Positions 18,033 to 57,678 of a DNA stretch of 64,000 nt are shown piece by piece; position 1 is the stretch's first letter; every line of letters starts with the position of its first letter. A model generated the notes under the pieces. That model had not been told where the DNA came from, did no database searches, and saw nothing but the letters and a program-made list of their open reading frames with translations. This stretch comes from Rhodothermales bacterium (lineage in GTDB: Bacteria > Bacteroidota > Rhodothermia > Rhodothermales > Bin80), in NCBI GenBank assembly GCA_963663495.1, contig OY760427.1, positions 62,080 to 126,079 of the forward strand, in the 5' to 3' direction. Position numbers and translations under genes: made by a program.

Positions 18033-19885
18033 CCTGCAATATTCATGTCGTACCCTGTTCGGGTCTAAAAGTGCTGTTTCGGTACCTGCACGACCGACTG
18101 TGCGTTGTTCATCGTAGGGGCGACCATGAGAGGGGCTGAAAACACCAGTTTAGGCCCTTTTCCCGACACGATAGCGGTCACACCGAGATTTTGGGAATGC
18201 GTCTGTCGGGTAGACACACCTCTGCCTACCTTCTCTTTCCGCATTTCCGCGTTGGGCGCCTGCGGTGTCGGAGCGCAGGCGCAAAGATGACTTAGCTAGC
18301 TCTTCAAGGGAAGCGTGATCCATGTGAGTTGACAATAACGTCGCCAAAATTGCTCCCATGCAGCATCTGCGCTGGCGGCAATGTGCATAACGATGTTGCG
18401 CGCGTGTTGTACGAAGCGGGCCCCACCTTGAGTACACGCTTGCGATAGGTGCTCAGACTCATCTGGGATTCGTCAGGCTCCCGCATGAGGCAGCGCCCCA
18501 CATGCATGAGCTGATACACCAGAAGGTATACCTACTAGCAGGACCTCGTTCTCGGCTCGGATCTCGGCATCCTGCTCCGACTCGTCAGGCTCCCGCACTA
18601 CAGGCCGGCCCTTATAGTGTGTCTTCGGACGGGGAACCGAAGACAGCGCCATGGAGCAGGCCGCATTCAGCTCCCCGAAGTGCTTTTCCGCCTTTCCTCT
18701 CTTCCGGTACAGATTCACAAGCTGCTCTGCCGGATAGGCTTCTGCATCCAGATCGGTGATCAGATAGAAATGCCGCGGGAAAAGCTCTCCCGGCACCGGA
18801 TCAACCACGAGCACCACACGACGCTCTACGGACCAGCACTTTGCACGGTGGCGCAGTTCGTGGTAGCATTCGTCCGACGGCTGATCACCCTCCAAATGAG
18901 GCGCCGCAAGCCCGTCAATCACATCGTTTCCTTTCAGACGCATCACATAGCCGGTACGGTCGTTCTCCAGCTTATCACATAACTCTCCACTGTTGAAGCC
19001 TGCGTCCAATCGGACAATGACCTTGTCGGCCACATGTTCACGCAATGCCAGCCCAATGCGTCGAATGAAACCGTAGCAGTCCTTCACCACATTCTGCGTG
19101 CCCCCTCGCAATTCCGCCCCCAACATATCACCCGACTCTCCGCATATGGCGATAAGGGGCAGAAAGATGGTGCGCTTGTAATACCCGTTCCATTTGCTAC
19201 CCTGCTGCTTGCCATGCGTATCTACCGGTACACCGTCCACATCAAAGACCACCTCGGGGCGGCGCTTTCCGCCACCACGCTGCAGCAGGTGCTCCATGGC
19301 GAATGTCTCTGCAAAAAGGCGCAACTTCTTGAAATTCTTTTTCCCGGCCAACATGCGCACGAAGCGAGACATGGTTGGCTGGGATGCCAGGGACCTATCG
19401 TCCTGTAAAGCCTCCATACCCCTTTTTGGAAGAAGTAGCCACGCGCATGGCGGGGTCCCTTTGAAGCTTGTCCGCATCTGACTGACGTCCCCACCCCTGC
19501 ACATGTTGCAGCAGGTACTGTCGCACTAACTCCTCAAGGCTACGCGTAATCCGAGCTTGGGACCGATTGTCCTTAAGCACGGAAGCGAGTCGGCATGCCA
19601 AGGTGCTGATCACCATGAGCAGGCGCATAGGAATGACGCCGGCATCCGATGTTAGATTATCGGTCTTGGAGCGTACAACTTTAGCGGATTTATTGAACTG
19701 GCAAGCGAACAGAAGGTTGGATTTGGGATCTTGCATCGGGTGTGTTACAGGGTGAACGGGTATTGGGGTCTCTAAACGTTTGAGTATCGCGCAAGAGTCC
19801 ATTCAACCCGTGTATAGTCAACATATTACGCCATAATATTAAACGACGATTCTCCACCACTTAACTCCCTTATGAATAAGGGAGG
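18033..19885 (-). mobile_element. IS1380-family element, copy A (1853 bp, decayed), TSD TTTAG
   Basis: Ends CCTGCAATATTCATG... and ...TCATGAATAAGGGAGG. TTTAG is present at both 18028-18032 and 19886-19890. Confidence 0.85.
18304..19802 (-). pseudogene. IS1380-family transposase, multiple frameshifts
   Basis: Three ORF pieces (19395..19802, 18473..19504, 18304..18519) are collinear with the intact 501-aa copy at 45394. Confidence 0.85.
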
Positions 19886-19975
19886 TTTAGACTCACATGG
19901 TCGACTACATGAATATTTAAGGAATATTGCAGGTTAGCCCTTTGAATCGTACCTTGGGCTACACGGAGGCAGGAT

Positions 19976-22900: not shown

Positions 22901-25900
22901 GTAACAGAGGGGACGGAAGAGCATTTTACGGTACAGTTACCCGCGGAGCCCACGCAGACAGTGGATGTGCGGATCACGGGAGATACTGGAACGGATGTAA
23001 TGGTGAACCCGAGGACGCTCCGGTACACGCCAGAGGACTGGAGCACGCCTGTTACGGTGAGAGTCCGTGCGGAAGAGGACGACGATGTCATGGACGCAAG
23101 TGTACAGCTCATCCTTACAGCATCTGGGGGTGAGTATGGCGGTGAGACAGAGGAAGTGGTGGTAGACGTACGAGACAATGACATACCAGGGATTGTGCTA
23201 TCCGATACAGAGCTCGAGATTGTTGAAGGGGACGCAGAGTCTTATACAGTGCGGCTAATGGCGGAGCCATCGGGCACGGTAATCGTGACAATCGCGAGTG
23301 ATAATCCCGAGGTTACGGTTAGTGATGCGTCGCTGACGTTCACGGCCGATGATTGGTATACCCCGCAGGCGGTAACGGTGCTGGCGCATGAGGACGACGA
23401 TCAGGACAATGACGATGCTACGCTTGTGCACCGGGCGTCGGGCTCAGATTACGATGGTGTGGAGGAGGAATTAACGGTGATGGTGCTGGACGACGACGAG
23501 GCGGGGCTGGTAGTAAGGCCGCAGGCATTGTCGCTGGACGAGGGAGCAGCAGGCAAAACCTTTACGGTATCGCTTGCGACTCCACCTTCGGGCCAGGTCA
23601 CCGTAACCCTCAGTCAAGAGTTCGCCCTGGATGGCAAGGTATCGGTCAGTTCTCTTGGCTTGACTTTCACGCCTGCGGACTGGGATACGGACCAGACGGT
23701 CATGGTGACAGCACTGGACGATGCGGATGGTAGTGACGAAGCTGGATTGGTACAGTTGTCGGCGAGCGGTGGTGGCTACGGAGGAAAATCAGGAGCTGTA
23801 AAGGTGAAGGTTACAGATGCTGATGCACCACACAGCATTGATATAGAACCTTCGTCGGTCCAGGTGTCTGAAGGTGCAGGGCCGGCGCGATTCAAGGTGA
23901 GGCTTAACAGGCAGAGTGAGACGGCTGTCACGGTGCGTTACACAACGCACGATGAGTCGGCCCATGCCGGGCTTGACTATCTGGTGCCGGTAACAAACAT
24001 GCTCGCCTTTGAGACAGGCGGCAACTTGGATAAGTGGATAGATGTACCGATTCTTGACGACGCGTTGCACGAGGGAGAGGAGACTTTTACGCTGGTACTG
24101 ACGGACGCACAGGGAGCGGAGCTGGGTAACGCGACGGGCCGTGCCACGATCACGGACAACGATGCTGCGCCCACTGTCAGCATGGTGCCTGCGGCGTATG
24201 TGCGGGAAGGGGGTATAGCAAATGTCTACGTCAGTCTAAGTAACGCCAGCGCGACTCCTACCGGGGTCTTGTACAGCACAAGTGATGTGACGGCGACAGC
24301 GGGAGATGACTACGAGGCGGTGAGCGCCGGGTCGGTAACGATTGAGCATGGTGAGATGGGAGCGGTAATACAAGTTCCAACCGAAGACGACGCACTGCAC
24401 GAGGGCAGGGAGGCGTTCCTAGTGCAACTTGATGGTGGCGGCCAGACCACGGTGACGATACTGGATAATGATCGTTTGCCACAGCTCTCCATAGGCGATA
24501 TGACGGTATCAGAGGATGGAGGGCACGCGCAGCTTGCAGTGTCGCTAAGTGATACGAGCCCGGTACGTGTAGGGGTGGCATTTGCCACCCAGGACGGTAC
24601 GGCAAAAGCGGGGGCAGATTACACGCGCACGATGGGCACGCTGGTCTTTGCACCGGGCGAGATGGTGAGGCATATATGGGTACCGGTAGCGCGTGATGAT
24701 GTGGTGGAGGATGAAGAGGAATTGGTAGTAAAGCTGAGCGCTCCGGAGCATGCCATGCTGTTGGATGCGGAGGGGGATGTGACGATTAAGGATGATCCGA
24801 TAGAGGTCAGTATCTATGACGGTACAGAGACAGAGAATTCGGATGAGCTGGTGATGGCCGTGCGGCTGAATTATGGTAGTACCAAGGTGGTATCGGTGCA
24901 GTTTGCGGTGACAGGAGGCACGGCAACATCGGATGTGGACTACGAGGCGACGCAAGGGCTGGTGGTATTCGAGACGGGCAGTACGGAGGCGCAAGTAAGG
25001 ATACCGCTGATAGACGACGACGTGCAGGAAGGAGACGAGACGATAGAGGTGACGCTGTCGAATCCGACGAATGCGCAAATCGGGCAGGCGATGGCCACGG
25101 GCACGATCGTGGATGATGAGACTGCGCCGGGAGTGCAGGTGCGAGCCATTGCGGTGTCGCAGACCGAGGCGCTGTTTGTGGTGAGACTACTGGCACCCGT
25201 GGCAGATCGGCTGACGGGCCGTTACCGTACGGTAGACGGCACGGCATGGGCGGGAGAGGACTACGAGCGCATGGAGGGGGTACTGGAGTTTGGGCCTGGG
25301 GAGACAAGAAAAGAGGTACGCGTGCCCTTACTGCGCGCGCAAGGTACCGGGGAGGCGTTTGCGCTGATGGTGGAGTTAGGGGATGAGACAGTCCGAGAGG
25401 ATGTGGTGTTGGGATCGAAGGATACGGGAAACCGTGCGCGATTAGGCAGGAGTGTGGCGGTGCATATAGTGGAGGCGGTATCGGAGCGTATGGAGGGATC
25501 ATTGGTGGGTTGTATGCCGAGGCCGTTTCCCGGTCAGCGGGTACGGGTGTCGCATCTTTTGTCGGGCTGTGGTATGCAGGCAGGCGGAGAGCGGCTGAGT
25601 GTATGGGGTCGTGGTGCGTACAGCAGGTTGCAGAGCGGCGGGGTATCGGGAGCGGATGTGGTGACGGCGTCATTGGGGGCGGACTACCGCACGGGAGGTC
25701 GCTGGCTGATGGGGATGGTGATATCACGCAGCGAGGCATTGGAGCAGGAAGGGACGCTACTACAGATGACGGGCTGGTATCCGTATGTGCGCTACGGGGG
25801 GATGCGGCACAGTGTGTGGGGGTTGGCAGGAGCAGGACAGGGAGTAGTAGCGGAAGCAGAGGATACGGGAATGCGCATGATGGCAGCAGGCGTGGGCGGC

Positions 25901-26554
25901 ACGCTGGTACGCCGGGCGGGCGCGCGGCTGGGGTACGAGGCGGACGGATTCTGGCTGGGGATGAATGGCGGAATAGGGGTGAGCCGAGTTCGCGCGGGTC
26001 TGGAGGGATCGGTGACGTTGCAGGACATCTTGGAGCCGTATGTGGAGGCGGCGGTTTTGCACAGCGGCGGGGATGCGGAGAGAGGAATGGGAATGGAGGC
26101 AGGCGGAGGGGTACGGGTGCGGATGGGGATGTTGCATGCGGAGGTGATGTCAAGACGTTTGGTGTTGCATCAGGAGGATGGCTACGGGGAGTGGGGATAT
26201 TCGGGCATGGTCCGCTATGGCGGAATGGAGGGATTGGGAGCGCAGGTGCGACCGACCTGGGGTCGAACGCACGTGGGGACGCTGTGGCAGGCGGAGCGTC
26301 CGTGGGAGGTGTATCCGTCGGATCGTCGGATGGAGTTGGAGGTGGGGTACGGTTCGCGTGTTCACAGGCGCAGTGTGCTGCGGCCGCATGTGGGTATGGG
26401 GCTGCGTGACAGAGGCAGGGACTACCGCATAGGAGCGGGCGTGCAGGGGCGCACGGGGTTAGGATTTAGCGTGAGCGGATTGGCGATGGAGCACATGGCA
26501 CCATACCGACCGGTGAGCTACGGCGTGACTGTGAGTGGTTACGCGCGCTGGTGA
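19976..26554 (+). CDS. giant surface protein: Calx-beta and Calx-beta-like repeats with a C-terminal autotransporter-like beta-barrel
   Basis: 2192 aa. Repeated DY..V.G.L.F.PGE....I.VPI.DD...E..E.F Calx-beta signatures. About 12 repeats of about 108 aa. The C-terminal 330 aa (GERLSVWGRGAYSRL...GADYRTGGRWLMGMVISRSEA...VTVSGYARW) is barrel-like and ends in an aromatic residue. Confidence 0.88.
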   Translation: MKLIVLASVGVISKGGFDCRTVHVVLRCVVMQLGLLSALGIIQSVQGQDAAESRFAAPANEIEISTGSGPEEVAPRILSSQMVSIEASPQVRECPSVPGPIWREVREGTTCSIHYSCGGSRYGPYVYMHHVDGTAERGKDVLVTGPDSLLLRVVNGFRRAFIDDTYEALSDGIPEGDEELRCYCGKDRDGPVEGERGSPVRILDVDGWTVRDTMAMEADGFMPFLLEFQQPVARDLTIKFYTEDGTAIKGTDYTKWQGLVTVKQGDMSADIRVPILGDQIPEDTETFNLITHSGQFAGIPKQKAIGTIVEPHLVLDPSPLTVKEGGQATYTVALGTQPIGDVTVVITGYAGTDLILGKTSLTFTAVDWNNPQTVDMTALQDADAVNDTETLIHTASGAADYAGVKRDLRVTVTDFQVRLQVAPLLLDLEEGGSGKDFTVKLGSAPVGEDVTVAVSIPPWLAGKVSLSDDNLTFTSTDWDETQSVNVTAEEDADGIDEVGTLGLLASGGGYDGRTGNVDVIVADDEIVQLVIVPTRLSLEEGGSGKVFTVKLGSPAVGEDVMVAVSIPPGLAGKVSLSDDNLTFTSTDWDETQSVTVTGEDDGDADDEVGILGLLASGGGYDGQTGNVVVTVDDDEIVQLVVVPTRLSLEEGGSGKEFRVKLVSYPPAGEDVTVAVSIPPGLAGKVSLSDDNLTFTFADWYKNQSVTVTGEDDGDADDEAGTLGLLASGGGYNSPKYRVAVTVDDDETVQLVVAPLTVSLVEGGSGKEFKVKLGSSPPVGEDVMVTVSIPPELAGKVSLSVPHLNFTSSNWSTDQLVSVTVEDDADAGHETGTLGLAASGGGYDGINGRVSVDVTDDDTPGLRIEPIALTVVEGASRVYRVALETEPTGTVTVTIVSDNSDVTMVATPLTFTSGDWDTEQTVMVRAAEDADTDDDSATLMHTASGGDYDSLTGAVTVEVEDNGSSVGLVVSPTNLSVTEGTEEHFTVQLPAEPTQTVDVRITGDTGTDVMVNPRTLRYTPEDWSTPVTVRVRAEEDDDVMDASVQLILTASGGEYGGETEEVVVDVRDNDIPGIVLSDTELEIVEGDAESYTVRLMAEPSGTVIVTIASDNPEVTVSDASLTFTADDWYTPQAVTVLAHEDDDQDNDDATLVHRASGSDYDGVEEELTVMVLDDDEAGLVVRPQALSLDEGAAGKTFTVSLATPPSGQVTVTLSQEFALDGKVSVSSLGLTFTPADWDTDQTVMVTALDDADGSDEAGLVQLSASGGGYGGKSGAVKVKVTDADAPHSIDIEPSSVQVSEGAGPARFKVRLNRQSETAVTVRYTTHDESAHAGLDYLVPVTNMLAFETGGNLDKWIDVPILDDALHEGEETFTLVLTDAQGAELGNATGRATITDNDAAPTVSMVPAAYVREGGIANVYVSLSNASATPTGVLYSTSDVTATAGDDYEAVSAGSVTIEHGEMGAVIQVPTEDDALHEGREAFLVQLDGGGQTTVTILDNDRLPQLSIGDMTVSEDGGHAQLAVSLSDTSPVRVGVAFATQDGTAKAGADYTRTMGTLVFAPGEMVRHIWVPVARDDVVEDEEELVVKLSAPEHAMLLDAEGDVTIKDDPIEVSIYDGTETENSDELVMAVRLNYGSTKVVSVQFAVTGGTATSDVDYEATQGLVVFETGSTEAQVRIPLIDDDVQEGDETIEVTLSNPTNAQIGQAMATGTIVDDETAPGVQVRAIAVSQTEALFVVRLLAPVADRLTGRYRTVDGTAWAGEDYERMEGVLEFGPGETRKEVRVPLLRAQGTGEAFALMVELGDETVREDVVLGSKDTGNRARLGRSVAVHIVEAVSERMEGSLVGCMPRPFPGQRVRVSHLLSGCGMQAGGERLSVWGRGAYSRLQSGGVSGADVVTASLGADYRTGGRWLMGMVISRSEALEQEGTLLQMTGWYPYVRYGGMRHSVWGLAGAGQGVVAEAEDTGMRMMAAGVGGTLVRRAGARLGYEADGFWLGMNGGIGVSRVRAGLEGSVTLQDILEPYVEAAVLHSGGDAERGMGMEAGGGVRVRMGMLHAEVMSRRLVLHQEDGYGEWGYSGMVRYGGMEGLGAQVRPTWGRTHVGTLWQAERPWEVYPSDRRMELEVGYGSRVHRRSVLRPHVGMGLRDRGRDYRIGAGVQGRTGLGFSVSGLAMEHMAPYRPVSYGVTVSGYARW
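21220..22540 (+). repeat. four near-identical 324-nt (108-aa) in-frame tandem repeats inside the giant gene
   Basis: GATGAGATAGTGCAATTGGTA.TAGTTCCGACGAGGTTAAGCTTGGAGGAAGGGGGGTCCGGCAAGG recurs at about 21547 and 21871. Related units start at about 21220 and 22200. Confidence 0.85.
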
Positions 26555-26598
26555 GTGCTGGGCGATATGCCACACTAAAGGGGATGATGTCCGGGTAA

Positions 26599-27178
26599 CC
26601 TGCAATATTCATGTCGTCGCTTGTTTGGATCCAAAAGCGCTGTTTCGATACCTGCACGACCGATCGTGTGTTGTTCATGCGTAGGGACAGCCAGGAGAGG
26701 GGCTGGAGACGCCAGTTTAGGCCCTTTTCCCGACACGAGAGCGGTCATACTCGAGAGTTTGGTAAAACTTCTGTCGAGCAGACAAACCTCTGCCTACCTT
26801 CTTTTTCCGCGTTGGGCGCCTGCGGTGTCTGAGCGCAGGCACAAAGATGAATTGGTTAGCTCTTCAAGGGGAAGCGTGATCCATGTGAGTTGGCAATAAT
26901 GTCGCCAAAATCGCTTCCATGCAGCATATGATCACCCTCCAAATCAGGCCCCGCAAGCCCGTCAATCACATCGTTTCCTTTCGGACGCATCACATAACTC
27001 TCCACTGTTGAAGCCGGCGTCCATTTGGATAATGATCTTGTCAGCCAAATGTTCACGCGATGCCAGCACAATGCGTCGAATGAAACCATAGTGTTGTTCA
27101 CCAGGCACGGAGTGCCCCTCCCAATTCCGCCCCCAACATGTTGACCGTATCACCGCATATGGCGATAAGGGGCAGGAA
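26599..27178 (-). mobile_element. IS1380-family remnant D (3' tail kept, coding region mostly deleted)
   Basis: It starts with CCTGCAATATTCATG and is collinear with copy A, with large internal deletions. Homology ends near GGCGATAAGGGGCAG. Confidence 0.75.
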
Positions 27179-44517: not shown

Positions 44518-44704
44518 GGTTAGATGTGGTTATCCGTTTTTCGTCGTAGGCATGAAAATAGTAGTTCGCGCCAATGGGTTCCGCCGCTTACCGGTATCAA
44601 TTCTTCGGTCGCAGAATGAAGTGCGCGGTCTTCGGCTCAGGTCCATGGCCGGGCTGGTGCGGCGGGGCATCTTCCAGGAATGGCTATGGCTGTTATTTTG
44701 GGAA

Positions 44705-45310
44705 TTATATACGTGAGTGACCAACTGTACACAGTGAGGCACTAGTATCAATTTCACGGGTCATAGGGGTCGGTAACCCGAACGCCCCTCGCCGTGCAGA
44801 AGCCCCAATCCCGGAGGCCAGTATGTTTGCAGCCGCATTCAGGTCTGCATGATCCGTATGTCCACAGGACATACACGTGAATTTGCTCCGTGTCTTACGG
44901 TTACTCGCTTCTGTGTGCCCACACACAGAACACCGCTGACTGGTATAGGCAGCGGTAACCTTTATCACCTTGCGGCACTTATAGCCCAGCATCTGTTCCA
45001 GCTGGCCCCAACCTGTTCGCAGTATTCCACGGTTGAGGCCAGACTTCTGTCTGACGTTTGTGCCAAAGCTCTCCATCGTCCCCTCAGCTGAACGTGTCAT
45101 CGCTTTGATCTTTAGGTCCTCCAGTATCACCGTTGAGGAGCATTTGGCAATACTGCGACTTACCTGGTGGTTCGCATTCTTGAGGATGTTAGCACGCTTG
45201 CGCTGTATGCGGGCGATTCTATGCTTCCGCCTGTTACGACGGTTGGAGCCTTTCTTCTGTCTCGCCAGTCTTCGCTGATGCCGCTTCAACTTGGCATCAA
45301 GACGCTTGGT
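44705..45310 (-). pseudogene. tnpB: tnpB copy 2, C-terminal part
   Basis: ...KRLDAKLKRHQRRLARQKKGS... to the stop. It is almost identical to 16695-17293 and is cut at the left end of IS1380 copy B. Confidence 0.9.
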
Positions 45311-47165
45311 CCTCCCTTATTCATGAGGGAGTTAAGTGGCGGGGAATCGTCGTTTAATATTATGGTGTAATATGTTGACTATACACGGTTTGAATGGGAA
45401 CCTGTGCGACACTCAAACGTTCAGAAACCCCAATACCCATTCACCCTGTAACACACCCGATGCCAGATCCCAAATCCAACCTTCTGTTCGCTTGCCAGTT
45501 CAATAAATCCGTTAAAGTTGTACGCTCCAACACCGATAATCTAACATCGGATGCCGGCGTCATTCCTATGCGCCTGCTCATGGTGATCAGCACCTTGGCA
45601 TGCCGACTCGCTTCCGTGCTTAAGGACAATCGGTCCCAAGCTCGGATTACGCATAGCCTTGAGGAGTTAGTGCGGCAGTACCTGCTGCAACATGTGCAGG
45701 GGTGGGGACGTCAGTCAGATGCGGACAAGCTTCGAAGGGACCCCGCCATGCGCGTGGCCACTTCTTCCAAAAGGGGTATGGAGGCTTTACAGGACGATAG
45801 GTCCCTGGCATCCCAGCCAACCATGTCTCGCTTCGTGCGCATGTTGGCCGGGAAAAAGAATTTCGAGAAGTTGCGCCTTTTTGCAGAGACATTCGCCATG
45901 GAGCACCTGCTGCAGCGTGGTGGCGGGAAGCGCCGCCCCGAGGTGGTCTTTGATGTGGACGGTGTACCGGTAGATACGCATGGCAAGCAGCAGGGCAGCA
46001 AGTGGAACGTGTATTACAAGCGCACCATCTTTCTGCCCCTTATCGCCATATGCGGTGAGTCGGGCGACATGTTGGGGGCGGAGTTGCGAGGGGGCACGCA
46101 GAATGTGGTGAAGGACTGCTACGGTTTCATTCGATGCATTGGGCTGGCATTGCGTGAACATGTGGCCGACAAGGTCATTGTCCGATTGGACGCAGGCTTC
46201 AACAGTGGCGAGTTATGTGATAAGCTGGAGAACGACCGTATCGGCTATGTGATGCGTCTGAAAGGAAACGATGTGATTGACGGGCTTGCGGCGCCTCATT
46301 TGGAGGGTGATCAGCCGTCGGACGAATGCTACCACGAACTGCGCTACCGTGCAAAGTGCTGGTCCGTAGAGCGTCGTGTGGTGCTCGTGGTTGTTCCGGT
46401 GCCGGGAGAGCTTTTTCCGCGGCATTTCTATCTGATCACCGATCTGGATGTAGAAGCCTATCCGGCAGAGCAGCTTGTGAATCTGTACCGGAAGAGAGGA
46501 AAGGCGGAAAAGCACTTCGGGGAGCTGAATGCGGCTTGCTCCATGGCGCTGTCGTCGGTTCTCCGTCCGAAGACACACTATAAGGGCCGGCCTGTAGTGC
46601 GGGAGCCTGATGAGTCGGAGCAGGATGCCGAGATCCGAGCCGAGAACGAGGTTCTGCTACAGGTATACCTTCTAACGTATCAGCTCATGCATGTGGGGCG
46701 CTGCCTTATGCGGGAGCCTGACGAATCCCAGATAAGTCTGAGCACCTATCGCGAGCGTGTACTCAAGGTGGGGGCCCGCTTCGTACAACACGCGCGCAAC
46801 ATCGTTATCCACATTGCCGCCAGCGCAGATGCTGCATGGGAGCAATTTTGGCGACGTTATTGTCAACTCACATGGATCACGCTTCCCTTGAAGAGCTAGC
46901 CAAGTCATATTTGCGCCTGCGCTTCGACACCGCAGGCGCCCAACGCGGAAAGCGGAAAGCGAAGGTAGGCAGAGGTGTGTCTACCCGACAGACGTCTTCC
47001 CAAAATCTCGGTAATGTGACCGCTATCGAGTCGGGAAAAGGGCCTAAACTGGTGTTTTCAGCCCCTCTCATGGTCGTCCCTACGCATGAACAACGCACAA
47101 TCGGTCCTGCAGGTACCGAAACAGCACTTTTAGACCCGAACAGGGTACATCATGAATATTGCAGG
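45311..47165 (+). mobile_element. IS1380-family element, copy B (1855 bp, intact ORF)
   Basis: IRL is CCTCCCTTATTCATGA. IRR is TCATGAATATTGCAGG (reverse complement CCTGCAATATTCATGA). Confidence 0.88.
45394..46899 (+). CDS. IS1380-family DDE transposase (intact, 501 aa)
   Basis: VVFDVDGVPVDTHG..., VIVRLDAGFNSGE..., NLYRKRGKAEKHFGELN (Y-R-E-K region). It is a single uninterrupted frame, unlike copies A and C. Confidence 0.88.
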   Translation: MGTCATLKRSETPIPIHPVTHPMPDPKSNLLFACQFNKSVKVVRSNTDNLTSDAGVIPMRLLMVISTLACRLASVLKDNRSQARITHSLEELVRQYLLQHVQGWGRQSDADKLRRDPAMRVATSSKRGMEALQDDRSLASQPTMSRFVRMLAGKKNFEKLRLFAETFAMEHLLQRGGGKRRPEVVFDVDGVPVDTHGKQQGSKWNVYYKRTIFLPLIAICGESGDMLGAELRGGTQNVVKDCYGFIRCIGLALREHVADKVIVRLDAGFNSGELCDKLENDRIGYVMRLKGNDVIDGLAAPHLEGDQPSDECYHELRYRAKCWSVERRVVLVVVPVPGELFPRHFYLITDLDVEAYPAEQLVNLYRKRGKAEKHFGELNAACSMALSSVLRPKTHYKGRPVVREPDESEQDAEIRAENEVLLQVYLLTYQLMHVGRCLMREPDESQISLSTYRERVLKVGARFVQHARNIVIHIAASADAAWEQFWRRYCQLTWITLPLKS

Positions 47166-47168
47166 ATC

Positions 47169-48059
47169 ATGGACATCGTACGCATGTTCGACACGGAGCA
47201 GAAGGCGTACGATTGGCTGGCTCGCTACGTGTGGCCGAATGGCCCCGTGTGTCCGTTTTGCGGATCGGACAATGTGCAATCTGGAATCAAGCATCCGTAA
47301 ATGACGCATCGTTGCCGTGACTGTGCGAAGAAGAAGATGTTTACGCTCAAGACCGGTACGATAATGGCACGCTCCAAGCTGGACTACCAGACGTGAGCGA
47401 TTGCGGCGTATCTGATCGTAACGAACTTGAAGGGAATATCGAGCATGAAGATTCAGCGCGAGCTGAGTATCACGCAAAAGAGTGCTTGGCACCTGTTGCA
47501 TCGTTTGCGCAAGGCGTACAAAACCGGCAGCTTCAGTTTTCAGGGGCCGGTCGCAGTAGACAAAGCCTATTTCGGAGGCAAGGAAGCCAATAAGCACGCG
47601 AACAAAAAGCTGAACGCTGGACACGGTAGCGTAGGCAAAACCGCTGTTGTAGGCATGAAGGATCGGGGGACCGGCCAGATCAAAACCCAGGTCATTGCCG
47701 ATACGACGGCCAAGACGCTACAGGGCTTCGTACACGAGAATGTAGAGGAAAGACCGACCATCTACACGGACGATCACAAATCCCACACGGGCTTACCGAA
47801 GGACGATACCGTGCAGAATAGCGTTGGCGAGTACGTTAAGGGGCAGGCCCACATTAACGGTGTCGAAAGCTTCTGGGCAACGTTGAAGCGCGGCTATCAT
47901 GGCACGTATCACCAAATGAACAAACAGCACCTACACCGCTACGTATCTGAATTTGCAGGACGCCATAAGGCACGCGAACTCGATACGGAAGATAAAATGG
48001 GCAAGCTGATGGCGAACGGCAAAGGGAAGCAGTTGCGGCACCGAGACTTGGTGGGTTGA
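47169..48059 (+). pseudogene. second, divergent IS1595-family transposase gene with two in-frame stop codons; left end removed by IS1380 copy B
   Basis: MDIVRMFDTEQKAYDWLARYVWPNGPVCPFCGSDNVQSGIKHP-TAA-MTHRCRDCAKKKMFTLKTGTIMARSKLDYQT-TGA-AIAAYLIVTNLKGISSMKIQ... is all in one frame. The TAA is at 47298-47300 and the TGA at 47394-47396. Confidence 0.82.
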
Positions 48060-48085
48060 CTCTTGCAGGGCAGGTTGCACCGCCG

Positions 48086-48763
48086 TCAAGGTGGGTCCAT
48101 CGACACCAACTCTAGCAGCCTGTCTCTTAGTTCAATTCCTAGAACCCGACAAACCTGCTCTTCTTTAACACCATTCTCGTATGCACTTCTGCGAATATCT
48201 CTTTGCTCTTGATCTGAGTAATGTGTTTCATTCTCGGCGTACTTAAAGCTAAAATCCTGTATCTCGTATGCCTCAAGTCCCTGAACTTGCCCTTGAACGG
48301 CACTAGCAACTTTTACCGCCCATTCCAAGGCATTTATTTCTTTCGATATGGAACTGCCCAGATCGGTGAGACGAACAGGGTTTTGTCCTACGGAGACTTT
48401 AGGACAAATGCGTACAAAAATCTTTCCTATGTCATTGCGGATTTCCTTCAAGTCATCACGTACTTCTTCCATGAACTCCTTGAAGGATTTTCGGTCTGCA
48501 TCAACAGCGCCCTTCCACTCTCCAAAGCCTTTCAAGGCATTACGATCAGAATCAACCGCCCCTTTCCATTCTCCGAAACCCTTCAGAGCAGCCCGGTCTG
48601 CATTGACTGCACCTTTCCATTCCCCGAAATCAACATTCTCCTTTCGTATATCCCTTCTAAGGACCCATGCGGCGATAAATACGGCTATGATTGTGGCAAG
48701 GGCTGAGACTATAGCAACAATGATGGTGGGCTCAGTCCACACATTTGTGGTTTCTTGAATCAT
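48086..48763 (-). CDS. membrane-anchored protein with three 17-aa tandem repeats (FGEWKGAV..DR.ALKG) and an uncharacterised C-terminal domain
   Basis: 225 aa. N-terminal TM helix (IIVAIVSALATIIAVFIAAWVL), a 3x repeat, then SPVRLTDLG..ISKEINALEWA...AYEIQDFSFKYAEN...VLGIELRDRLL. The DNA here is visibly more AT-rich than its neighbours. Confidence 0.65.
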   Translation of the reverse strand: MIQETTNVWTEPTIIVAIVSALATIIAVFIAAWVLRRDIRKENVDFGEWKGAVNADRAALKGFGEWKGAVDSDRNALKGFGEWKGAVDADRKSFKEFMEEVRDDLKEIRNDIGKIFVRICPKVSVGQNPVRLTDLGSSISKEINALEWAVKVASAVQGQVQGLEAYEIQDFSFKYAENETHYSDQEQRDIRRSAYENGVKEEQVCRVLGIELRDRLLELVSMDPP

Positions 48764-48981
48764 GGCATCGGGGGGCTGCTGGGGTGGACATGCCGCGCAT
48801 TTTGTGCGGAATATGCACTAAGTAGTTCTTTATTACAAAGCATACTCGCGCGATGCATCACATGCCAAGCCGTATCCAAATACAAAAATAATGCATTTTG
48901 TTTCAAAATCGTACTATATTGAGCCTCGTGCAGAACCTCTGAATTGAAGAAATTGGCTGCATAATTTGACTCCGCTGGCAT
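48760..48981 (-). CDS. possible 73-aa upstream ORF coupled by an ATGA overlap (may instead be 5' UTR/promoter DNA)
   Basis: Its stop overlaps the downstream ATG (ATGA at 48760-48763). There is no recognisable domain, and the region also contains promoter-like motifs. Confidence 0.25.
   Translation of the reverse strand: MPAESNYAANFFNSEVLHEAQYSTILKQNALFLYLDTAWHVMHRASMLCNKELLSAYSAQNARHVHPSSPPMP
48883..48908 (-). promoter_or_regulatory. candidate Bacteroidota-type promoter (TTTG ... TAnnTTTG) for the 48086-48763 gene
   Basis: The minus strand reads GATTTTGAAACAAAATGCATTATTTTTGTATTTGG. TATTTTTG fits the TAnnTTTG -7 motif, and a TTTG lies upstream of it. Confidence 0.3.
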
Positions 48982-49029
48982 AGGATCACTTGTGGTATTT
49001 CTGGAGGGTTGCCGGTGCGGATTACAGCG

Positions 49030-49530
49030 TCTTTTTCGGGGGTTTTTCAGTTTCTACATGCTGCGGCAATATGTGCGCCCACGGCGAACAAGAAAGGGAC
49101 TGGAACCTCCTCATTGGTTATCTTCAAGTCTGATAAAAACGGAGAACAGAGGAGGTATCCATGTCCCTGTTCTCCGAGTTAAGCGGTTATTGGATTAGTT
49201 GCCAGCAGGAGCTTTTCCGTGGATGGAGGAAACGCTTGGTTCATTGGAGGGGCGTCACAAGAAGCTTCTATCGATTCTGGAGATGGTGCCTATTGAGCAA
49301 TTCTTAGTGCGCCAGGCTAACTCTGCCCAGTACTCACAAGAGTGACTTGACAACGGGCGCATTCAGGGCATCCGAAAGGCATGGCAAAGCGTCTTGCTCG
49401 TGGGTTTTGTTGCAAGTGAAGCGAAGTTCCTTGTAGTGGGTGGCCTGTTGTTGCCATTAACACCAAGTCTCGTGGTGTGTAGCAAGTAAGGTACGTCAAG
49501 GAAGGAACCCGCACGTGGCTGGCACGCACC
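49030..49530 (+). pseudogene. remnant (5' UTR and N-terminus) of a second IS5/IS1182-like element
   Basis: GGACTGGAACCTCC..., TTAAGCGG.T..TGGAT.A..TGCCA.C.GGAGCTTTT.CC and MEETLGSLEGRHKKLLSILEMVPIEQFL parallel the 5' end of the element at 27545-29334. It decays after about 30 codons. Confidence 0.6.
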
Positions 49531-49597
49531 GAGGGCGTGCGCCTTGGGCGGTGGAAGGGGAACGAAGCAACCGAGACTGCGGAGCGTACGGGTACCG

Positions 49598-51728
49598 CTA
49601 TGGCGGCGAACGCTCTACCCGGTCATAGAATGTTAATTCTTCATAGGCGATCGCTCGCATCTGCAGCCTTGCGTAGCCGCGCCACAGGATGGTGTGCCCC
49701 GGCGGCGGGTCATGCTTGCGGTTCATGTAGCCGCCCATCATCGCCACCAGCACGATCGCCGAAGCCAGATCTGTGTGTGCGGCAAGACTATAGTTGCGGG
49801 CATAGACCCGCATCATGTGCAGCTCTGCATCGGTGAACATCACCTCCGCTTCCATGTCGGCGGATACACGCCCCAACAAGGTCATCAGCATGATCCGCCA
49901 GGCTGTGACCATGTACAGTGTAATCGCCCGATGCAAGGCGTCCGCCTGCTGCATGCGCAGCTTCTCTATACGGCAGCCGCTCTTGAGAATCCGGAAGATG
50001 TCCTCTACACGCCAGCGCAGCGTGTAGTTTTCCACCATCTGCTTCGCTTCCTCCACGGTCGTCACCTCCACCGTGGTCAAAAGATACCACTCGATGCGAT
50101 CGGCGCCGTCCGGCGGCGCGGTCTCACGCATGTGGATCGCCGATACCGTTACCGGAGCTTCTGTAGAACCCTTCGGCGAAGGCAGCCTCACCCGGCGAAA
50201 ACGCAATTCCATCCGCGCCGTACGCGCTTCGCGGCCTTTGTACGTAACCCGACCCGACTTCGCCCGACGACTCAGACGCGTCACCGACAGCTCCAGCACA
50301 TCCGCTGCCGGCCCCTTACGCATCGCCTTGAATAGCCGATCCTGGTCCTTGCCCAGTCTCCGGTTATGCTTGGCCCGCACCAATACCTGCGTCCGCTTCA
50401 GCGTACGCTGCGCCGCAAAGAGCGCAAATATGTCCGCCTCCCGGTCCATCACGCACAGCACGCGTGTCTTGCGCGGCAGCGTCTCTGCAGCCTTGTCTAT
50501 GTCACGCAGCCCGTGTATCCATTGATGCGTCTTCGTTTCCTTTTCCTTCTTCCTGTACGCACAACACCGTATCCTGCGTACGCATCCGCTCGATCGTACG
50601 CTGACGGTGGGGCGCCAACATCTTCGCCGGCGTGATCCCGAACTGGTCCGCCTTCTCTATAAACCGCCAGTAGCCCCGTACCGCCGCAGGATCTCGCTCT
50701 GGTGTCGCCGTCACAGGCTTTCCCATCGCGTTGGCCACCAATGCGGCGCTCTTGACCAAACGGACGCTACGTCGCACATCTCCCAGCTCCGCAGCACCAA
50801 ACTCCTGCTGTGCCCACGTGGCTCTGCACAGCCCGGCGCCCACCTCCAGCCGGGGCCGCAATTCCACATCCGACACGCCCAGAAGCGTGCGCCACGCAGG
50901 CTCCAACTCATAGACCAATACCTTCTTCCGGGAAACCTGACCAGCACCGTTGGGAGCATGCCGGCCCCGCCCCTGGGTAACACCCAAATATCGGAAACCC
51001 ACCGCCCGAAAACACGTCCCTGTATGGTCCGGCCCCACAAACGTCTCCACGATGTACGGCACATAATCGTAGCGTTCCTCGAAATCGGAAACCAGACGCC
51101 GCAACACGCGACCCAGAGCGTAACTCGCCAGATTCTTGCACTGCACACCCGGACGAATCAGAAAACGGCTCAGGTTTACTATGCGGTGAAGCTGAGCACC
51201 TCGCTGCTCGTGGCTCCAGACCATCCACGCGTCCCGAGGCTTCAGATACAGGGCGGCGGCAGAAAAACCGACCGCACCCAGATAACCGTGTGCGCTCGTG
51301 ATCAGATAGCGCAACTGCGCCCCCGCAAACGTGGTCACCCCCTGCGGATGCTCCCGGTCCATGAGCGTGTTCCAGATGGCACGATCCTGCCTGCTCTCGA
51401 CCAGAACGATCTCCAAGTCCTCAATCTGGCGCACATCTTCGGGCATGTCCACCGCCTCCGATACCGGAGCATCCAACAGCCGGGGGCGGGAAACCGGAAC
51501 AGCACACTGCGGTGGTGGCAATGTAATCCGCCCTTCGGCTTCCAGCACCCGCAACGCCTTCATACACGTTGCCCGCTGCTCGCGGCCACGTGCATCAAAA
51601 AAGCCGAACTGCTCACACACCAAGACCCCGAGAGCCGACCGACTCTTGCCCTGGTGTGCCGCCACTGTTGCCGACAGGGTCGGCAACGCGCTGCGAAGCG
51701 TTGTCAGAATCCCACGCTGTGCCTCCAT
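49598..51728 (-). pseudogene. DUF4338 + Tn5-like (IS4-family) transposase, disrupted between the first and second catalytic Asp
   Basis: The N-terminal ORF has RIVNLSRFLIRPGVQCKNLASYALGRVLRRL...PYIVETFVGPDHTGTCFRAVGFRYLGVTQGRGR (DUF4338-like). The C-terminal ORF has MDREADIF...YTLRWRVEDIFRILKSGCRIEKL (Tn5-type YREK region). Only about 37 codons separate VLCVQ from DREAD, and the frame changes. Confidence 0.72.
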
Positions 51729-52092
51729 ACCGGTAACCTAAGCGGTATGGAGGCATTGTCAAGTCTTATTTGTGGCGATAGGGCAGGCCTAGCTCCAGAA
51801 ACCGACCAGATCATGCACACCAGACCCTCCGACGATATTGATGAGGGGGTTGTCCAATTATGAATTCTATGGCGACTCGTGAGTACAATGCCTAGGCTAC
51901 ACATCTGTTCTCGCCCCAAGTGCTGAATTCAACTGCTGCGACGCAATCTCTTAACATTCTTCTTTATGGGTCGGAGGAGTTGAATCGCGCCATCATATGG
52001 CACTCATGGCTGCCATACTGGCGGTATACGCAAATGGCATGATTATTGTGTAGAAGTGTTCTAGTATCACACAAACAAACAGTGTAGAGCAA

Positions 52093-52302
52093 ATGAAAAA
52101 AGCGATATTCCAGATGTTCCAGTCAAAGAAGGCCATCGCTATGTTGGTCGGATTAGTTGTGGCAGTTGGCGGCCACTTGGGGTTAAACCTTGATCCAGAT
52201 GCCTTGACAACAATTCTTGCACCGGTTCTGGCCTACATCGTGGGCCAAGGCGTAGCGGATCACGGAAAAGAAAAGGCCCGAATGGAAAAAACCGACGCCT
52301 GA
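52093..52302 (+). CDS. 69-aa two-helix membrane protein, function unknown
   Basis: KKAIAMLVGLVVAVGG and ILAPVLAYIVGQGV hydrophobic segments. ATG with an upstream purine-rich stretch. Confidence 0.4.
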   Translation: MKKAIFQMFQSKKAIAMLVGLVVAVGGHLGLNLDPDALTTILAPVLAYIVGQGVADHGKEKARMEKTDA

Positions 52303-52699
52303 CAAGCAAAATCTTCAGAGGCGGCGCTATAGTCAGGCCGGCGCAATTCCGCAACACTCATAGCCAACTGTTGTTAGGAAGGGTATAATCATATTACGTC
52401 CTTAAGCAGTGGCTGTAAATGCGATTTAAGTAGCGCTTGCCAGAAGATGCAATTTTCGACTGAGTTGGACTCAGGGATGAGAATTGTGTGCTCATGTGTC
52501 AGGTCAATGCGGGGTTTGTGCGCATTGACGGGGTCTATTCTGGCGTTGGGAGCCCAAAGTCTTGGTGTCACGGTGCCCATGAGCGACGGGAGGAGATAGG
52601 TTGCCCCCGCCCGCAACAGGTTACTTGAATTTGCAGCTAAGTTCGGTTGAAGGAGCCGCTACGCCGCGCGCTTGCGGGCGGCATGCCATCGTATTTTTC

Positions 52700-53172
52700 G
52701 CCTCTCCTTCGCTCGCAGTATCAGCCCAAGGCGGTGCATGTTGGCCGTTACTATTACCAGGGCGACAGTTCGGACAAATCCTTCCTCGCCATGGGTTCGA
52801 ATCAGAGATAGCCCCCGCTGATTATCCCGGTAGGGACCCGGGTTTCCCCGGGCCCCCGGACAGATCCACGCATGCGCGCTAACGCATGTGGCTCCTCGTT
52901 CGGGTCGCACCGACGTGCGGGACGGAAAATCGCGTAGCGGGCCATGGGTGTCTGATCTGCAGCTTTGGCCAATGTCGTGCAGCGAGCTTGTCCATCGTCT
53001 CCCACGTTGTACGGTCCCGTTGGGATCGTCGTCGAAGAAGGCGCATCCATATCCAATTAAACCGCCTGTAGCCCATGTCCCGCGACAGCAGGTCGTGCAA
53101 GCGTATCAGCGATCCGACCTTCTAAAGCGCCGAGCCGAAGTGCTCCAGGCGTGGAGCAACTACATCACATAG
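52700..53172 (+). pseudogene. decayed C-terminal fragment of a P4-type tyrosine integrase
   Basis: Frame-hopping pieces ...HGCLICSFGQC.. (HG.RS.FR.W-like) and ...AHVPRQQVVQAYQRSDLLKRRAEVLQAWSNYI*, which is a typical integrase C-terminus. Confidence 0.5.
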
Positions 53173-53206
53173 CGAAACGCCGCCTACCGGTGGCGCCCAA
53201 TCCCCT

Positions 53207-54469
53207 TCACTCGGAACCCTCGGTTCCCAATAGCCTCTTGATTCGCTTGACCAAGCGCGTCCTTCTCGCACGGTAAAACTCGCCGAACCCGGTCATTTCT
53301 TCGGGCACGGAGCCCAGCAGGTGATCGCGAACATGCGACCTTCGCCTGCTTTCGTCAGGATACGCCCGAGCCAACCATTCAAGCGGCATGGTTGCACTCT
53401 TCTCAGTGTTCACCGGGCCCGGCAAGAGTTGGAGGTTGCCGAGTCGATCCGCTCGCTCGCGGAATCCTTCGATCTGCTCCTCGGCGATATGCGCATCTCG
53501 CAGCTTGGACGTGCTGAACTTCGCGAACGGGAAGATGTGGTCCACATGAAACAGCTTCCCCGGATCCACGAAGGGGAAGATGAGCGAGAGAAGAGCGAAC
53601 GCTCGTGAACTGAAATAATCCGTGTCCGCCAGTTCTTCGACTTCCTCATCGTTGAACACGAGTTCCCGTCCCCGACGGGCCATCTCCTCGCCAAGCCGGG
53701 CGGCGGGGAACCCCTGGGTCGCGTCTTCGCGGATCACCTTCCTCAGCGCCGTGAGCAAGGTGTCGAGGCCACTCCCCCAGACACCGCCCTTCAGCAGGCT
53801 GCGGATCAGCCACCCTCGAATCCTCTCCCGGTCGTCCTCATGCCTGCTGTGACTGAGGAATGACTCCGCATGCTTGTTCCGGTGCAGATAGTAGGCGATG
53901 GGCAGAATGGCGTTGTGCGCGGTTAGCGTTGCCCGGCTAAGACCGAAGCCCGCGACCAACTGCACTGTCAACGTCAGCGCCGACTTGACGGACGTCCACT
54001 GCTCCTCGAGAACCTCCATGTTCTTGCGATTGAAGTTGTCTACCTTGAATCCCACGCTCCCGATGTCGCTCAACATCAGCCCAGCCTTGAGGACTAGGTC
54101 CTTCGAGAAGGTGAACCCCAATCCGATCCGGTTGAGCGCGTCGACGAGTTTGTGAATCTCCTCACGCGCATCGTGCGTGTTCCATTGCGCCACGGCGATC
54201 GACAGCAGCAGGTCGGAGTGAGAGAGGGGGGTGCCGCCGTCATTCATGCGAATGAAGATCTGGACGACATCGTCCATTATCTGTCTCCGCTCTTCGTAGT
54301 ACGCCACCATGTGCTCCTTGCGAATCACGCTGTGAAGCCGGTCGAGTGTCTGATAGGCATCGTCCACGAACCGCTGGTCGAGGTGCCTGTTCAGCCACCG
54401 CACCATCGGCGGACCACCGTCCATCGACAACACATCCCTCACGGGGAACCAGCATTCGGCACCGTTGCC
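53207..54469 (-). pseudogene. GmrSD-like (DUF262/DUF1524) type IV restriction-type nuclease, 5'-truncated by IS1380 copy C
   Basis: IFIRMNDGGTPLSHSDLLLS (end of DUF262). C-terminal HVDHIFPFAKF...NLQLLPGPVNTEKSA (DUF1524 His-Me finger-like). The reading frame runs open into the IS boundary at 54470. Confidence 0.68.
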
Positions 54470-56334
54470 CCTCCCTTATTCATGAGGGAGTTAAGTGGCG
54501 GGGAATCGTCGTTTAATATTATGGTGTAATATGTTGACTATACACGGTTTGAATGGGATCCTGTGCGACGCTCAAACGTTCAGAAACCCCAATACCCATT
54601 CACCCTGTAAAACACCCGATGCAAGATCCCAAGTCCAACCTTCTGTTCGCTTGCCAGTTCAATAAATCCGTTAAAGTTGTACGCTCCAAGACCGATAATC
54701 TAACATCGGATGCCGGCGTCATTCCTATGCGCCTGCTCATGGTGATCAGCACCTTGGCATGCCGACTCGCTTCCGTGCTTAAGGACAATCGGTCCCAAGC
54801 TCGGATTACGCATAGCCTTGAGGAGTTAGTGCGGCAGTTACTGCTGCAACATGTGCAGGGGTGGGGACGTCAGTCAGATGCGGACAAGCTTCGCAGGGAC
54901 CCCGCCATGCGCGTGGCCACTTCTTCCAAAAGGGGTATGAGGGCATTACAGGACGATAGGTCCCTGGCATCCCAGCCAACCATGTCTCGCTTCGTGCACA
55001 TGTTGGCCGGGAAAAAGAATTTCAAGAAGTTGCGCCTTTTTGCAGAGACATTCGCCATGGAGCACCTGCTGCAGCGTGGTGGCGGGAAGCGCCGCCCCGA
55101 GGTGGTCTTTGATGTGGACGGTGTACCGGTAGATACGCATGGCAAGCAGCAGGGCAGCAAGTGGAACGGATATTACAAGCGCACCATCTTTCTGCCCCTT
55201 ATCGCCATATGCGGTGAGTCGGGCGACATGTTGGGGGCGGAATTGCGAGGGGGCACGCAGAATGTGGTGAAGGACTGCTACGGTTTCATTCGACGCATTG
55301 GGCTGGCATTGCGTGAACATGTGGCCGACAAGGTCATTGTCCGATTGGACGCAGGCTTCAACAGTGGCGAGTTATGTGATAAGCTGGAGAACGACCGTAT
55401 CGGCTATGCGTCTGAAAGGGAACGATGTGATTGACGGGCTTGCGGCGCCTCATTTGGAGGGTGATCAGCCGTCGGACGAATGCTACCACGAACTGCGCTA
55501 CCGTGCAAAGTGCTGGTCCGTAGAGCGTCGTGTGGTGCTCGTGGTTGTTCCGGTGCCGGGAGAGCTTTTTCCGCGGCATTTCTATCTGATCACCGATCTG
55601 GATGTAGAAGCCTATCCGGCAGAGCAGCTTGTGAATCTGTACCGGAAGAGAGGAAAGGCGGAAAAGCACTTCGGGGAGCTGAATGCGGCTTGCTCCATGG
55701 CGCTGTCGTCGGTTCTCCGTCCGAAGACACACTATAAGGGCCGGCCTGTAGTGCGGGTGCCTGATGAGTCGGAACAGGATGGGTCGGAACAGGATGCCGA
55801 GATCCGAGCCGAGAACGAGGTCCTGCTACAGGTATACCTTCTAACTTATCAGCTCATGCATGTGGGGCGCTGCCTTATGCGGGAGCCTGACGAATCCCAG
55901 ATAAGTCTGAGCACCTATCGCGAGCGTGTACTCAAGGTGGGGGCCCGCTTCGTACAACACGCGCGCAACATCGTTATCCACATTGCCGCCAGCGCAGATG
56001 CTGCATTGGAGCAATTTTGGCTACGTTATTGTCAACTCACATGGATCACGCTTCCCATGAAGAGCTAGCTAAGTCAAATTTGTGCCTGCGCTCCAACACC
56101 GCAGGCGCCCAACGCGGAAAGCGGAAAGAGAAGGTAGGCAGAGGTGTGTCTACCCGACAGACGTCTTCCCAAAATCTCGGTAATGTGACCGCTATCGAGT
56201 CGGGAAAAGGGCCTAAACTGGTGTTTTCAGCCCCTCTCATGGTCGTCCCTACGCATGAACAACGCACAATCGGTCCTGCAGGTACCGAAACAGCACTTTT
56301 AGACCCGAACAGGGTACATCATGAATATTGCAGG
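54470..56334 (+). mobile_element. IS1380-family element, copy C (1865 bp, frameshifted)
   Basis: Same ends as copy B. Relative to copy B it has a 4-nt deletion near 55405 and a 15-nt tandem duplication (GGTCGGAACAGGATG) near 55775. Confidence 0.88.
54553..56068 (+). pseudogene. IS1380-family transposase, frameshifted
   Basis: ORFs 54553..55434 and 55298..56068 together cover the 501-aa protein of copy B. Confidence 0.88.
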
Positions 56335-56984
56335 TTGGTATCCGGTTGTCTGATAATGCTTGTATCGCCCTCTGTGGAGACCATAGCGATCTGCCCGCAA
56401 TTACGGTCAATGCCTACAGCACTGCCGGTATCCTCTATTACAGGTGCCTCAATCTTGTAGCAGATGACAGCATACCCTCTGCCGGCGTTCTTCTTTACAG
56501 TGGCTTTGATGGGTATACCATCAGGGTACGGGTTGCCTCCCCGCCTGCGGAGCGCCATATATCCCACTTTCGGGATATACAGCTTGCCATCCCGAACCCT
56601 TACGTTATCCGGGATCGTGAACGAAGGCGTACTACCACGTCTGGAATGGAATCTCGGTCTTCTCTTACCTTCCTTGAAGAATGCCTTCCATGCATCCGCC
56701 TGATATTTCAATGTGTATCTAACGACACCAAAGGAGTATTCAGGTAGCCACTCGACCGTACGGCGCAGTGCCGTGAACCGCTTCCCCAGCGAGAAGAAGC
56801 TTACCGAGGGCGGCTTCTCTCCAGCCTCTTTCGCTTTCTTGTAGGCCTCGCTCTGCTCTGCGAGGATGGCATTCCACACAAACCTACACGCACCCGCTAA
56901 TCCAGCAAGTTGCTTGGCGTTACTTCGACTTCCGGGCAACAGCCTGTATGTAATATTGCGGTATGCACTAACCGTTTCGGGCAT
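56335..56984 (-). pseudogene. tnpB: tnpB copy 2, N-terminal part
   Basis: MPETVSAYRNITYRLLPGSRSN...IIRQPDT, near-identical to 16043-16692. It is cut at the right end of IS1380 copy C. Confidence 0.9.
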
Positions 56985-57219
56985 GGCACTGTGATATATA
57001 ACTCCCTAATATATGAAAATTATATTCCACGCGTACCCACGTGTTGAGTTATTTGAAATAATTGCATTGTTTTCGTGAAAAGCGGGAACCGATTATGAAC
57101 AACTGGCGAAAGCCATCCTGTCTGCACCACCAAAGCACAATAAGTAACTCCTGCGAAAACGCGTGGCACTCAGCCATATAACTCCCGTTATTTTCTATTG
57201 ATTAGCCTTGGGTGGCAAC

Positions 57220-57678
57220 ATGAAAATAGTCGTGAGCGCTGATGAGCATCTTCCGCTGGTAGATATGATCCTTGGTGAGTTGCACAGGAGGGGCCATGAA
57301 ATACGGTACTTCGGACCAAAATGCGGCGAGCCAGCGCAGGACTGGCCGGTGGTGACCAGAGAGGCAGTGCAGTGCGTGGGCTCCGGCTCCGCAAGTCAGG
57401 CCATTGTTCTCTGCTGGACAGGTACCGGTTGTTCCATTGTTGCCAACAAGATTCCCGGGATCCGGGCTGCGCTCTGCTCTGATGCCGAGACGGCACGCGG
57501 TGCGCGGCGCTGGAACGACGCTAACGTGTTGGCGCTGAGCCTGCGGGCTACTTCTGAGGCAGTCTTGAAGGAGATCCTAGATCAGTGGTTCTCAACGGAA
57601 CCGGATGCCGATGACTGGAACAGGGTGCAGCTTCAGCGCCTGGCGGTCATGGATACCAACGTGCCTCCACAGCCGTAA
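57220..57678 (+). CDS. rpiB: ribose-5-phosphate isomerase B
   Basis: MKIVVSADEH...CWTGTGCSIVANK...ARRWNDANVLAL, the LacAB/RpiB pattern. Confidence 0.85.
   Translation: MKIVVSADEHLPLVDMILGELHRRGHEIRYFGPKCGEPAQDWPVVTREAVQCVGSGSASQAIVLCWTGTGCSIVANKIPGIRAALCSDAETARGARRWNDANVLALSLRATSEAVLKEILDQWFSTEPDADDWNRVQLQRLAVMDTNVPPQP

Follow-up and report, generated by a model that had tools for sequence, protein, structure and literature searches.

The stretch of DNA analyzed here, referred to as the window, is 64,000 nt of the chromosome of a Rhodothermales bacterium (positions 62080-126079 of contig C1 of genome G000, a single-contig genome of 5.92 Mb with 55% G+C). In it, one copy of the gene tnpB (copy 2) is split by an 11,024-bp block (45311-56334), which consists of two copies, B and C, of an insertion sequence (IS) of the IS1380 family and a cargo of 7,304 bp between them. 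The nested structure of this insertion is confirmed to the base. The block probably moved into tnpB as one unit, that is, as an IS1380-family compound transposon inserted in one piece.

The structure can be read by comparing copy 2 with tnpB copy 1 (15833-17298, plus strand; open reading frame (ORF) 16043-17293, 416 amino acids), which is uninterrupted and served as the reference. In a repeat search, 15884-16692 of copy 1 pairs with 56335-57143 (809 nt, 99%, opposite strand) and 16688-17298 pairs with 44700-45310 (611 nt, 99%, opposite strand). In copy 1 these arms share exactly 5 nt (16688-16692). They are the TTGGT that is duplicated around the block and represent its empty target. The first-pass annotation of the window, made from the letters alone, had already placed TTGGT at 45306-45310 and at 56335-56339 and the two tnpB halves against the outer ends of the IS copies, left in B and right in C; direct reading, the repeat pairs and a three-way alignment of the IS copies bear this out. 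It had also stated that taking out the block and one TTGGT restores the copy-1 sequence. When this is done in silico, a 40-mer spanning the healed junction is present exactly in copy 1, and the whole healed copy is 97.8% identical to copy 1 over 1,481 nt with three gap openings. After healing, tnpB reads through 423 codons without a stop; the interruption is at codon 216, and 408 of the 416 copy-1 residues are identical. A lone 5-mer match is expected about once in 1,000; since here it is found together with the base-exact reconstitution of a known sequence, the duplication is not a matter of chance. The inner flanks, in turn, are not duplicated: B is followed by ATCAT and C is preceded by TTGCC, neither of which pairs with anything, so that one IS-typical duplication surrounds the whole and there is none at the inner junctions.

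The interrupted tnpB belongs to an element with IS1595-type terminal inverted repeats (TIRs) that carries tnpB and has no transposase. Its 3' part lies at 44700-45310 (minus strand), where a TIR (44700-44710) adjoins the C-terminal half of tnpB (ORF 44705-45289), and its 5' part at 56335-57186 (minus strand), with the N-terminal half, whose start codon is at 56984, and a TIR at 57176-57186. The TIR motif GGGARTTATAT is on the plus strand on the left and on the minus strand on the right, and direct reading shows an 8-bp target duplication, GTTATTTT, at 44692-44699 and 57187-57194. Other copies of the element also have 8-bp duplications; tnpB copy 1 has no matching one. Copy 2 was knocked out by the 11-kb insert. 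The copy-1 protein scores 246 bits against the TnpB model NF040570 (cut-off 100) and also matches Pfam OrfB_IS605 and the Cas12f1-like TNB domain. In a genome-wide BLAST search the tnpB unit gave 172 full-length (~1.47 kb) and 220 partial pieces, together 371,911 bp or 6.3% of the chromosome. IS1595-like elements in the same genome bear the same TIR and, judged by this likeness, may be the source of the transposase that moves the tnpB units. It was also seen that 14 of the 25 full-length copies printed share an identical 15 nt upstream of their left flank (compare window positions 15810-15832), which reflects either a longer variant of the element or an element repeatedly sitting in another repeat.

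The flanking IS is present in the window in three copies, all delimited by the three-way alignment. Copy B (45311-47165, plus strand, 1,855 bp) has an intact transposase ORF (45394-46899, 501 amino acids). Copy C (54470-56334, plus strand, 1,865 bp) is frameshifted by a deletion of 5 bp, which leaves ORF pieces at 54553-55434 and 55298-56068, and it has one additional 15-bp repeat unit. Copy A (18033-19885, minus strand) is decayed, with several indels. B and C are direct copies that differ by 34 substitutions and two indels (2.7% diverged). The outer ends are intact: IS positions 1701-1855 are identical in B and C, and the left ends are identical across the terminal repeat. The segment is thus bracketed by two copies of the same IS whose outer ends are intact and of which at least one retains an intact transposase ORF. 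IS1380-family elements have a single ORF, a length of ~1.7-2 kb and short imperfect terminal inverted repeats. Copy B fits this description with its 1,855 bp, its one 501-aa ORF and 16-nt ends that match at 13 of 16 positions. Its transposase matches the IS1380 family model NF033539 with 256.9 bits (cut-off 180) over model positions 4-418 of 419, and Pfam PF13701 at 3.3e-72. A tblastn search with this transposase matched 655 plasmid records, all with less than 60% identity and the best rows with 33-41%. Since the plasmid-borne matches are at most about 41% identical, the IS is a distant member of the family.

Two further observations concern this IS. The transposase gene contains an in-frame 15-bp tandem repeat (encoding pentapeptides such as SEPDE, SEQDE and SEQDG; around 46610 in B and 55770-55800 in C). 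B has a single unit of it, and other copies have up to about 20. Of 51 aligned copies, 33 have a length that deviates from 1,855 bp by a multiple of 15 bp, and the intact ORFs span 501-596 amino acids. Further, 26597-27091 holds the debris of a relative that is more distant, with 83-90% identity to portions of A, B and C.

Genome-wide, a BLAST search with copy B returned 158 pieces, among which there are 84 left and 77 right ends; the IS has ~80 copies and makes up 2.5% of the genome. Of the 61 complete copies into which these ends can be paired, 39 are flanked by a perfect 5-bp duplication, 4 by one of 4 bp and 18 by none (B and C, taken singly, being counted among the last). These copies therefore show the 4-5 bp target duplication of the IS1380 family, and the proposal that 5 bp is the signature of this IS, first put forward on the strength of copy A, holds; the TTTAG of copy A (plus strand, 18028-18032 and 19886-19890) is one of the 39. 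In these 39 duplications the target preference is weakly palindromic: the second position is T in 31, the fourth is A in 24 and G in 10, the preceding base is C or T in 31 and the following base is A or G in 34. The site of the block, C-TTGGT-A, conforms to this preference.

Some of the copies without a duplication have flanks that match those of other copies. TCTAT is found on the left at genome position 820873 and on the right at 2426830, and GCAAA on the right at 1387350 and on the left at 2067100. The 18 duplication-less copies among 61, together with such recurring flanks, form the pattern expected of IS-mediated rearrangements.

Of 161 IS ends, 28 (17%) adjoin tnpB-unit sequence, where 6.3% would be expected. 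This excess need not mean targeting, since each insertion contributes a pair of ends and the cell tolerates insertions in repeats that are already dead. At a finer scale (unit coordinates, in which position 1 is window position 15825), some positions were hit repeatedly: 721-725 twice, in both orientations, 762-766 three times and 864-868 twice, in both orientations. This suggests sequence-level hot spots for the IS within the unit. Another tnpB copy, at 5767239-5770690 of the genome, is interrupted by a single IS (5767850-5769839) flanked by a duplicated ACCAA, which is TTGGT read on the other strand. With respect to tnpB this IS points the opposite way from B and C, and it is therefore an independent insertion; a deletion derivative of the 11-kb block is ruled out on the same ground. 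As the same pentanucleotide was struck twice, it is a recurrent target, the TTGGT duplication in the window was made by transposase chemistry, and insertions of a single IS at this place do occur. One could go further and see true hot spots in the TnpB element, three pentanucleotides having been struck two to three times independently and two of them in both orientations. One expanding family would then repeatedly inactivate an RNA-guided nuclease gene that belongs to another family, and the 11-kb block would be still mobile, shuffling fragments of defence genes in a sponge-associated bacterium. We regard this wider picture as possible but doubtful.

The cargo (47166-54469) contains no complete gene. 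Its first part is an IS1595-like remnant (47166-49304, plus strand; Pfam and NCBIfam IS1595 matches), whose transposase frame is broken into pieces at 46836-47300 and 47427-48059 and which holds an ORF of no assigned identity on the minus strand (48086-48763). The first 94 bp of this element, including the TIR, were removed by B; two other copies in the genome extend 94 bp leftwards beyond the start of B, up to the TIR. At the point of interruption the intact copies read C-ATCAT-G, a perfect fit to the IS target consensus, which indicates that B was once a simple insertion in the IS1595-like element. One genomic copy of the IS1595-like element (at 4174134) is interrupted at 4175700-4175900 by a short insertion that has this TIR motif at each end and seems to be a miniature form derived from the IS1595-type element. 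The remnant is followed by an IS4/Tn5-like element (49305-51793, minus strand), of which the genome has three to four further copies, with a transposase in two ORFs (50502-51728 and 49598-50461). The product of this region (49598-51728, minus strand) begins with an N-terminal DruA domain (PF14236), followed by DNA-binding and DDE domains. Next is a spacer (51794-53206) made of 687 bp of single-copy DNA (51794-52480), a fragment of a dispersed repeat (52481-53012; 52492-52823 with five other copies at ~90% and 52824-53012 with one) and intergenic DNA.

The last part of the cargo is a 5'-truncated HEC-05/GmrSD-like defence gene (53207-54469, minus strand; PADLOC PDLC04151 at 3e-132). Residues 3-406 of its product correspond to profile positions 195-594 of 600, so the gene is not full-length; its frame stays open to the first base of C, and ~190 codons were removed. 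The 594-aa homologue of a family-level relative (G009) aligns to the genome only from residue 191, and the first 200 residues of this homologue gave no better tblastn match in the genome than E = 0.087, so that the N-terminal part was not found there. Neither was an orphan left part of the IS1595-like element, nor any IS end with ATCAT on its left or TTGCC on its right. As these pieces are missing, the cargo edges must have been cut by B and C in a donor locus whose outer parts are absent from the chromosome, and the block was imported and not assembled locally.

In public sequence data, parts of 52900-57400 were present in nine runs, all as assembled contigs; four of the runs are sponge metagenomes and the other five come from one organism. 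A contig of 1,869 nt from run X5 covers 52900-54470, with 34 differences and 2 gaps in the alignment. It is near-identical over 52900-54276; the 32 substitutions and 2 indels listed are all within 54277-54439 (~18% different there), and the 221 nt past 54470 do not align to copy C. The contig may represent an uninterrupted HEC-05-like allele with a recombination breakpoint.

Altogether the locus has the layers that had been proposed for it: the chromosome, the TIR element with tnpB, the IS1380 block and older IS insertions in the cargo. 

Several lines of evidence favor the movement of B, cargo and C as a unit: the 5-bp duplication, the exact reconstitution of tnpB, the 5-bp habit of the IS and the fit of the target site. 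In addition, the outer ends are intact, the 501-aa ORF of B is complete and both inner junctions are truncations; there is also a precedent in the IS1380 family for moving DNA 3' of the element, and here the cargo lies 3' of the intact B. In such an event, B, cargo and C would be cut or copied from a donor site outside the present chromosome. The transposase, of which B still encodes an intact version, would pair the two outer ends, left in B and right in C, and bypass the two inner ones. Cuts staggered by 5 nt at the TTGGT of tnpB codon 216 would then allow the 11,024-bp segment to be joined, and gap repair would produce the duplication. The joint use of both outer ends in a single event is the step that we infer.

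The first-pass annotation had concluded from the duplication that the block must have transposed as a unit. As the most likely reading this stands, but as a strict inference it does not, because an IS-plus-cargo segment that recombines into a resident IS leaves the same TTGGT. For the same reason its statement that homologous recombination would abolish the outer duplication is untrue where a single IS lands first and IS-plus-cargo then recombines in. The flanking duplication alone is no proof of unit movement where the target is a recurrent single-IS site.

A number of results weigh against movement as a unit. The search that had been proposed for the same composite elsewhere with other 5-bp flanks found none in the genome, nor was there a second copy of the block, a donor site or an empty-site variant, and the unique cargo is single-copy. 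A single-copy cargo with no donor remnants stops short of demonstrated movement in one piece. In public metagenome and genome contigs, collections that may omit this genome and its near relatives, there were no matches either to a 30-nt word at the cargo edge beside C or to a 36-nt word across the junction of B and the cargo. A further 40 genomes of the same family or order, none of which is of the same genus, likewise gave no second copy, no donor and no polymorphic form. If transposition is replicative, as a review states for ISPme1 (PMC9330008), the donor should persist, and it is not in the chromosome. The single IS at the same pentanucleotide of another tnpB copy makes a single-IS first step realistic. 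With 18 of 61 copies lacking a duplication and some flanks cross-matching, recombination or decay at IS copies seems common. B and C were also compared at 34 diagnostic columns in 51 aligned copies, as reciprocal chimeras of two parental types would speak for recombination; the family proved too heavily mosaic to tell the two routes apart, with nearest relatives that differ at 7-17 positions over 1,290 nt; windowed nearest-neighbor distances likewise showed the nearest copy of B and of C to shift from window to window.

The main alternative has two steps. A single IS would insert at TTGGT and make the duplication, and IS-plus-cargo would then enter by homologous recombination, either as a circle formed by recombination between direct IS copies at the donor or as a linear IS-cargo-IS segment from a related strain. 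The independent insertion at 5767850-5769839 is an example of the first step, and the repeated hits elsewhere in tnpB (721-725 twice, 762-766 three times) point the same way. For the second step, ~80 near-identical IS copies offer ample homology, the 18 copies without a duplication are what recombination between copies would give, and uptake from another cell would account for the missing donor. Against this, two rare events are needed instead of one, and the parental haplotype that is predicted was not seen: along its length B resembles a B-like subgroup and C a C-like subgroup, which counts for little as mosaics exist. The form of the locus with a single IS in tnpB was not seen either, in contigs that are unable to show it. 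We consider the two-step route a possible one, though on the unlikely side, and retain transposition of the whole block as the favored reading.

Another hypothesis concerns the order of events and fits either mechanism. The composite may have entered a tnpB element elsewhere, and an IS1595-type transposase supplied in trans would then have moved the resulting 12.5-kb element to the present site. The tnpB element has two intact TIRs and a perfect 8-bp duplication, other copies have 8-bp duplications as well, and IS1595-like elements with the same TIR are present in the genome. The relative order of events that had been drawn from the layering is therefore sound for the layers themselves but not for the timing, since the intact 8-bp duplication allows a later move of the whole. 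Yet the genome has no second copy of the 12.5-kb form, and the 172 full-length units are of ~1.47 kb, which lends no support to the mobilization of a version ~8.5 times longer, so that such a move is improbable.

The last alternative, an assembly artefact in which two mis-joins inside IS copies placed foreign cargo between the halves of a tnpB with a single IS, is very improbable: although the genome has ~80 copies of this 1.86-kb repeat and no independent contig crosses the outer junctions (none of those listed bridges 56334/56335), the reciprocal mis-join product, an IS with ATCAT on its left or TTGCC on its right, is absent from the single-contig assembly, the 34 substitutions and two indels between B and C are readily resolved by long reads, and a contig of run X9 is identical over 54066-54498, crossing from the cargo into C, if only by 29 nt, which is below the 31-nt bridging threshold. 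The run contigs end at repeats and thus neither back nor contradict the outer junctions of the block. As would be expected, contigs that break off at 56334/56335 continue into sequence of other IS copies or of tnpB copies without an insertion.

In the chromosome the nested block is located between a NIF3-like gene and rpiB. Elsewhere in the window, a 2,192-aa ORF (19976-26554, plus strand) contains four tandem units of ~330 bp each (21257-22552) with 64-100% identity.

Compound (composite) transposons such as Tn5, Tn9 and Tn10 are the first system with which the block can be compared. It resembles them in having two copies of the same IS, intact outer ends, one intact transposase and one IS-typical duplication around the whole. 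It is unlike them in that the IS belongs to the IS1380 family, the two copies are direct and 2.7% diverged with one of them dead, the cargo consists of IS debris and a truncated defence gene, and the mobility of the unit is deduced from one insertion.

Within the IS1380 family, ISEcp1 and ISPme1 mobilize DNA 3' of the element by means of a right end further downstream (PMC9330008). An ISEcp1 unit within the tnpA gene of Tn3, with a 5-bp duplication at its flanks, is described in another report (PMC2887853). The ISEcp1-blaCTX-M units and the ISPme1 transposable modules (TMos) share with the block the IS1380 family, the position of the mobilized DNA 3' of an intact IS and the 5-bp duplication, and the ISEcp1 unit in Tn3 tnpA (PMC2887853) also sits in the gene of another transposon. 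In contrast to these units, the right boundary of the block is the authentic right inverted repeat (IRR) of copy C and not a surrogate IRR-like sequence, which sets it apart from a TMo as described there. It also differs from plasmid-borne IS1380 elements, to whose transposases its own is at most about 41% identical.

The pseudo-compound transposons and translocatable units of IS26, in which a circle of IS plus cargo joins a resident IS to give IS-cargo-IS while the old duplication is kept, offer a model for the two-step route (PMC5024762). IS26 is a member of the IS6 family and its own transposase does the reaction, whereas for IS1380 only host homologous recombination could be invoked. A search for papers on TnpB in IS1595 or DDE elements yielded none of relevance. 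The cargo holds no working gene, and the case as a whole has no bearing on an open question. Beside these systems, what the window contains is a clean yet ordinary nested transposition in an IS-crowded chromosome, brought about by a new and distant IS1380 member. Its value is that of a well-documented case of what is probably compound-transposon formation by such a member in a chromosome saturated with IS copies.

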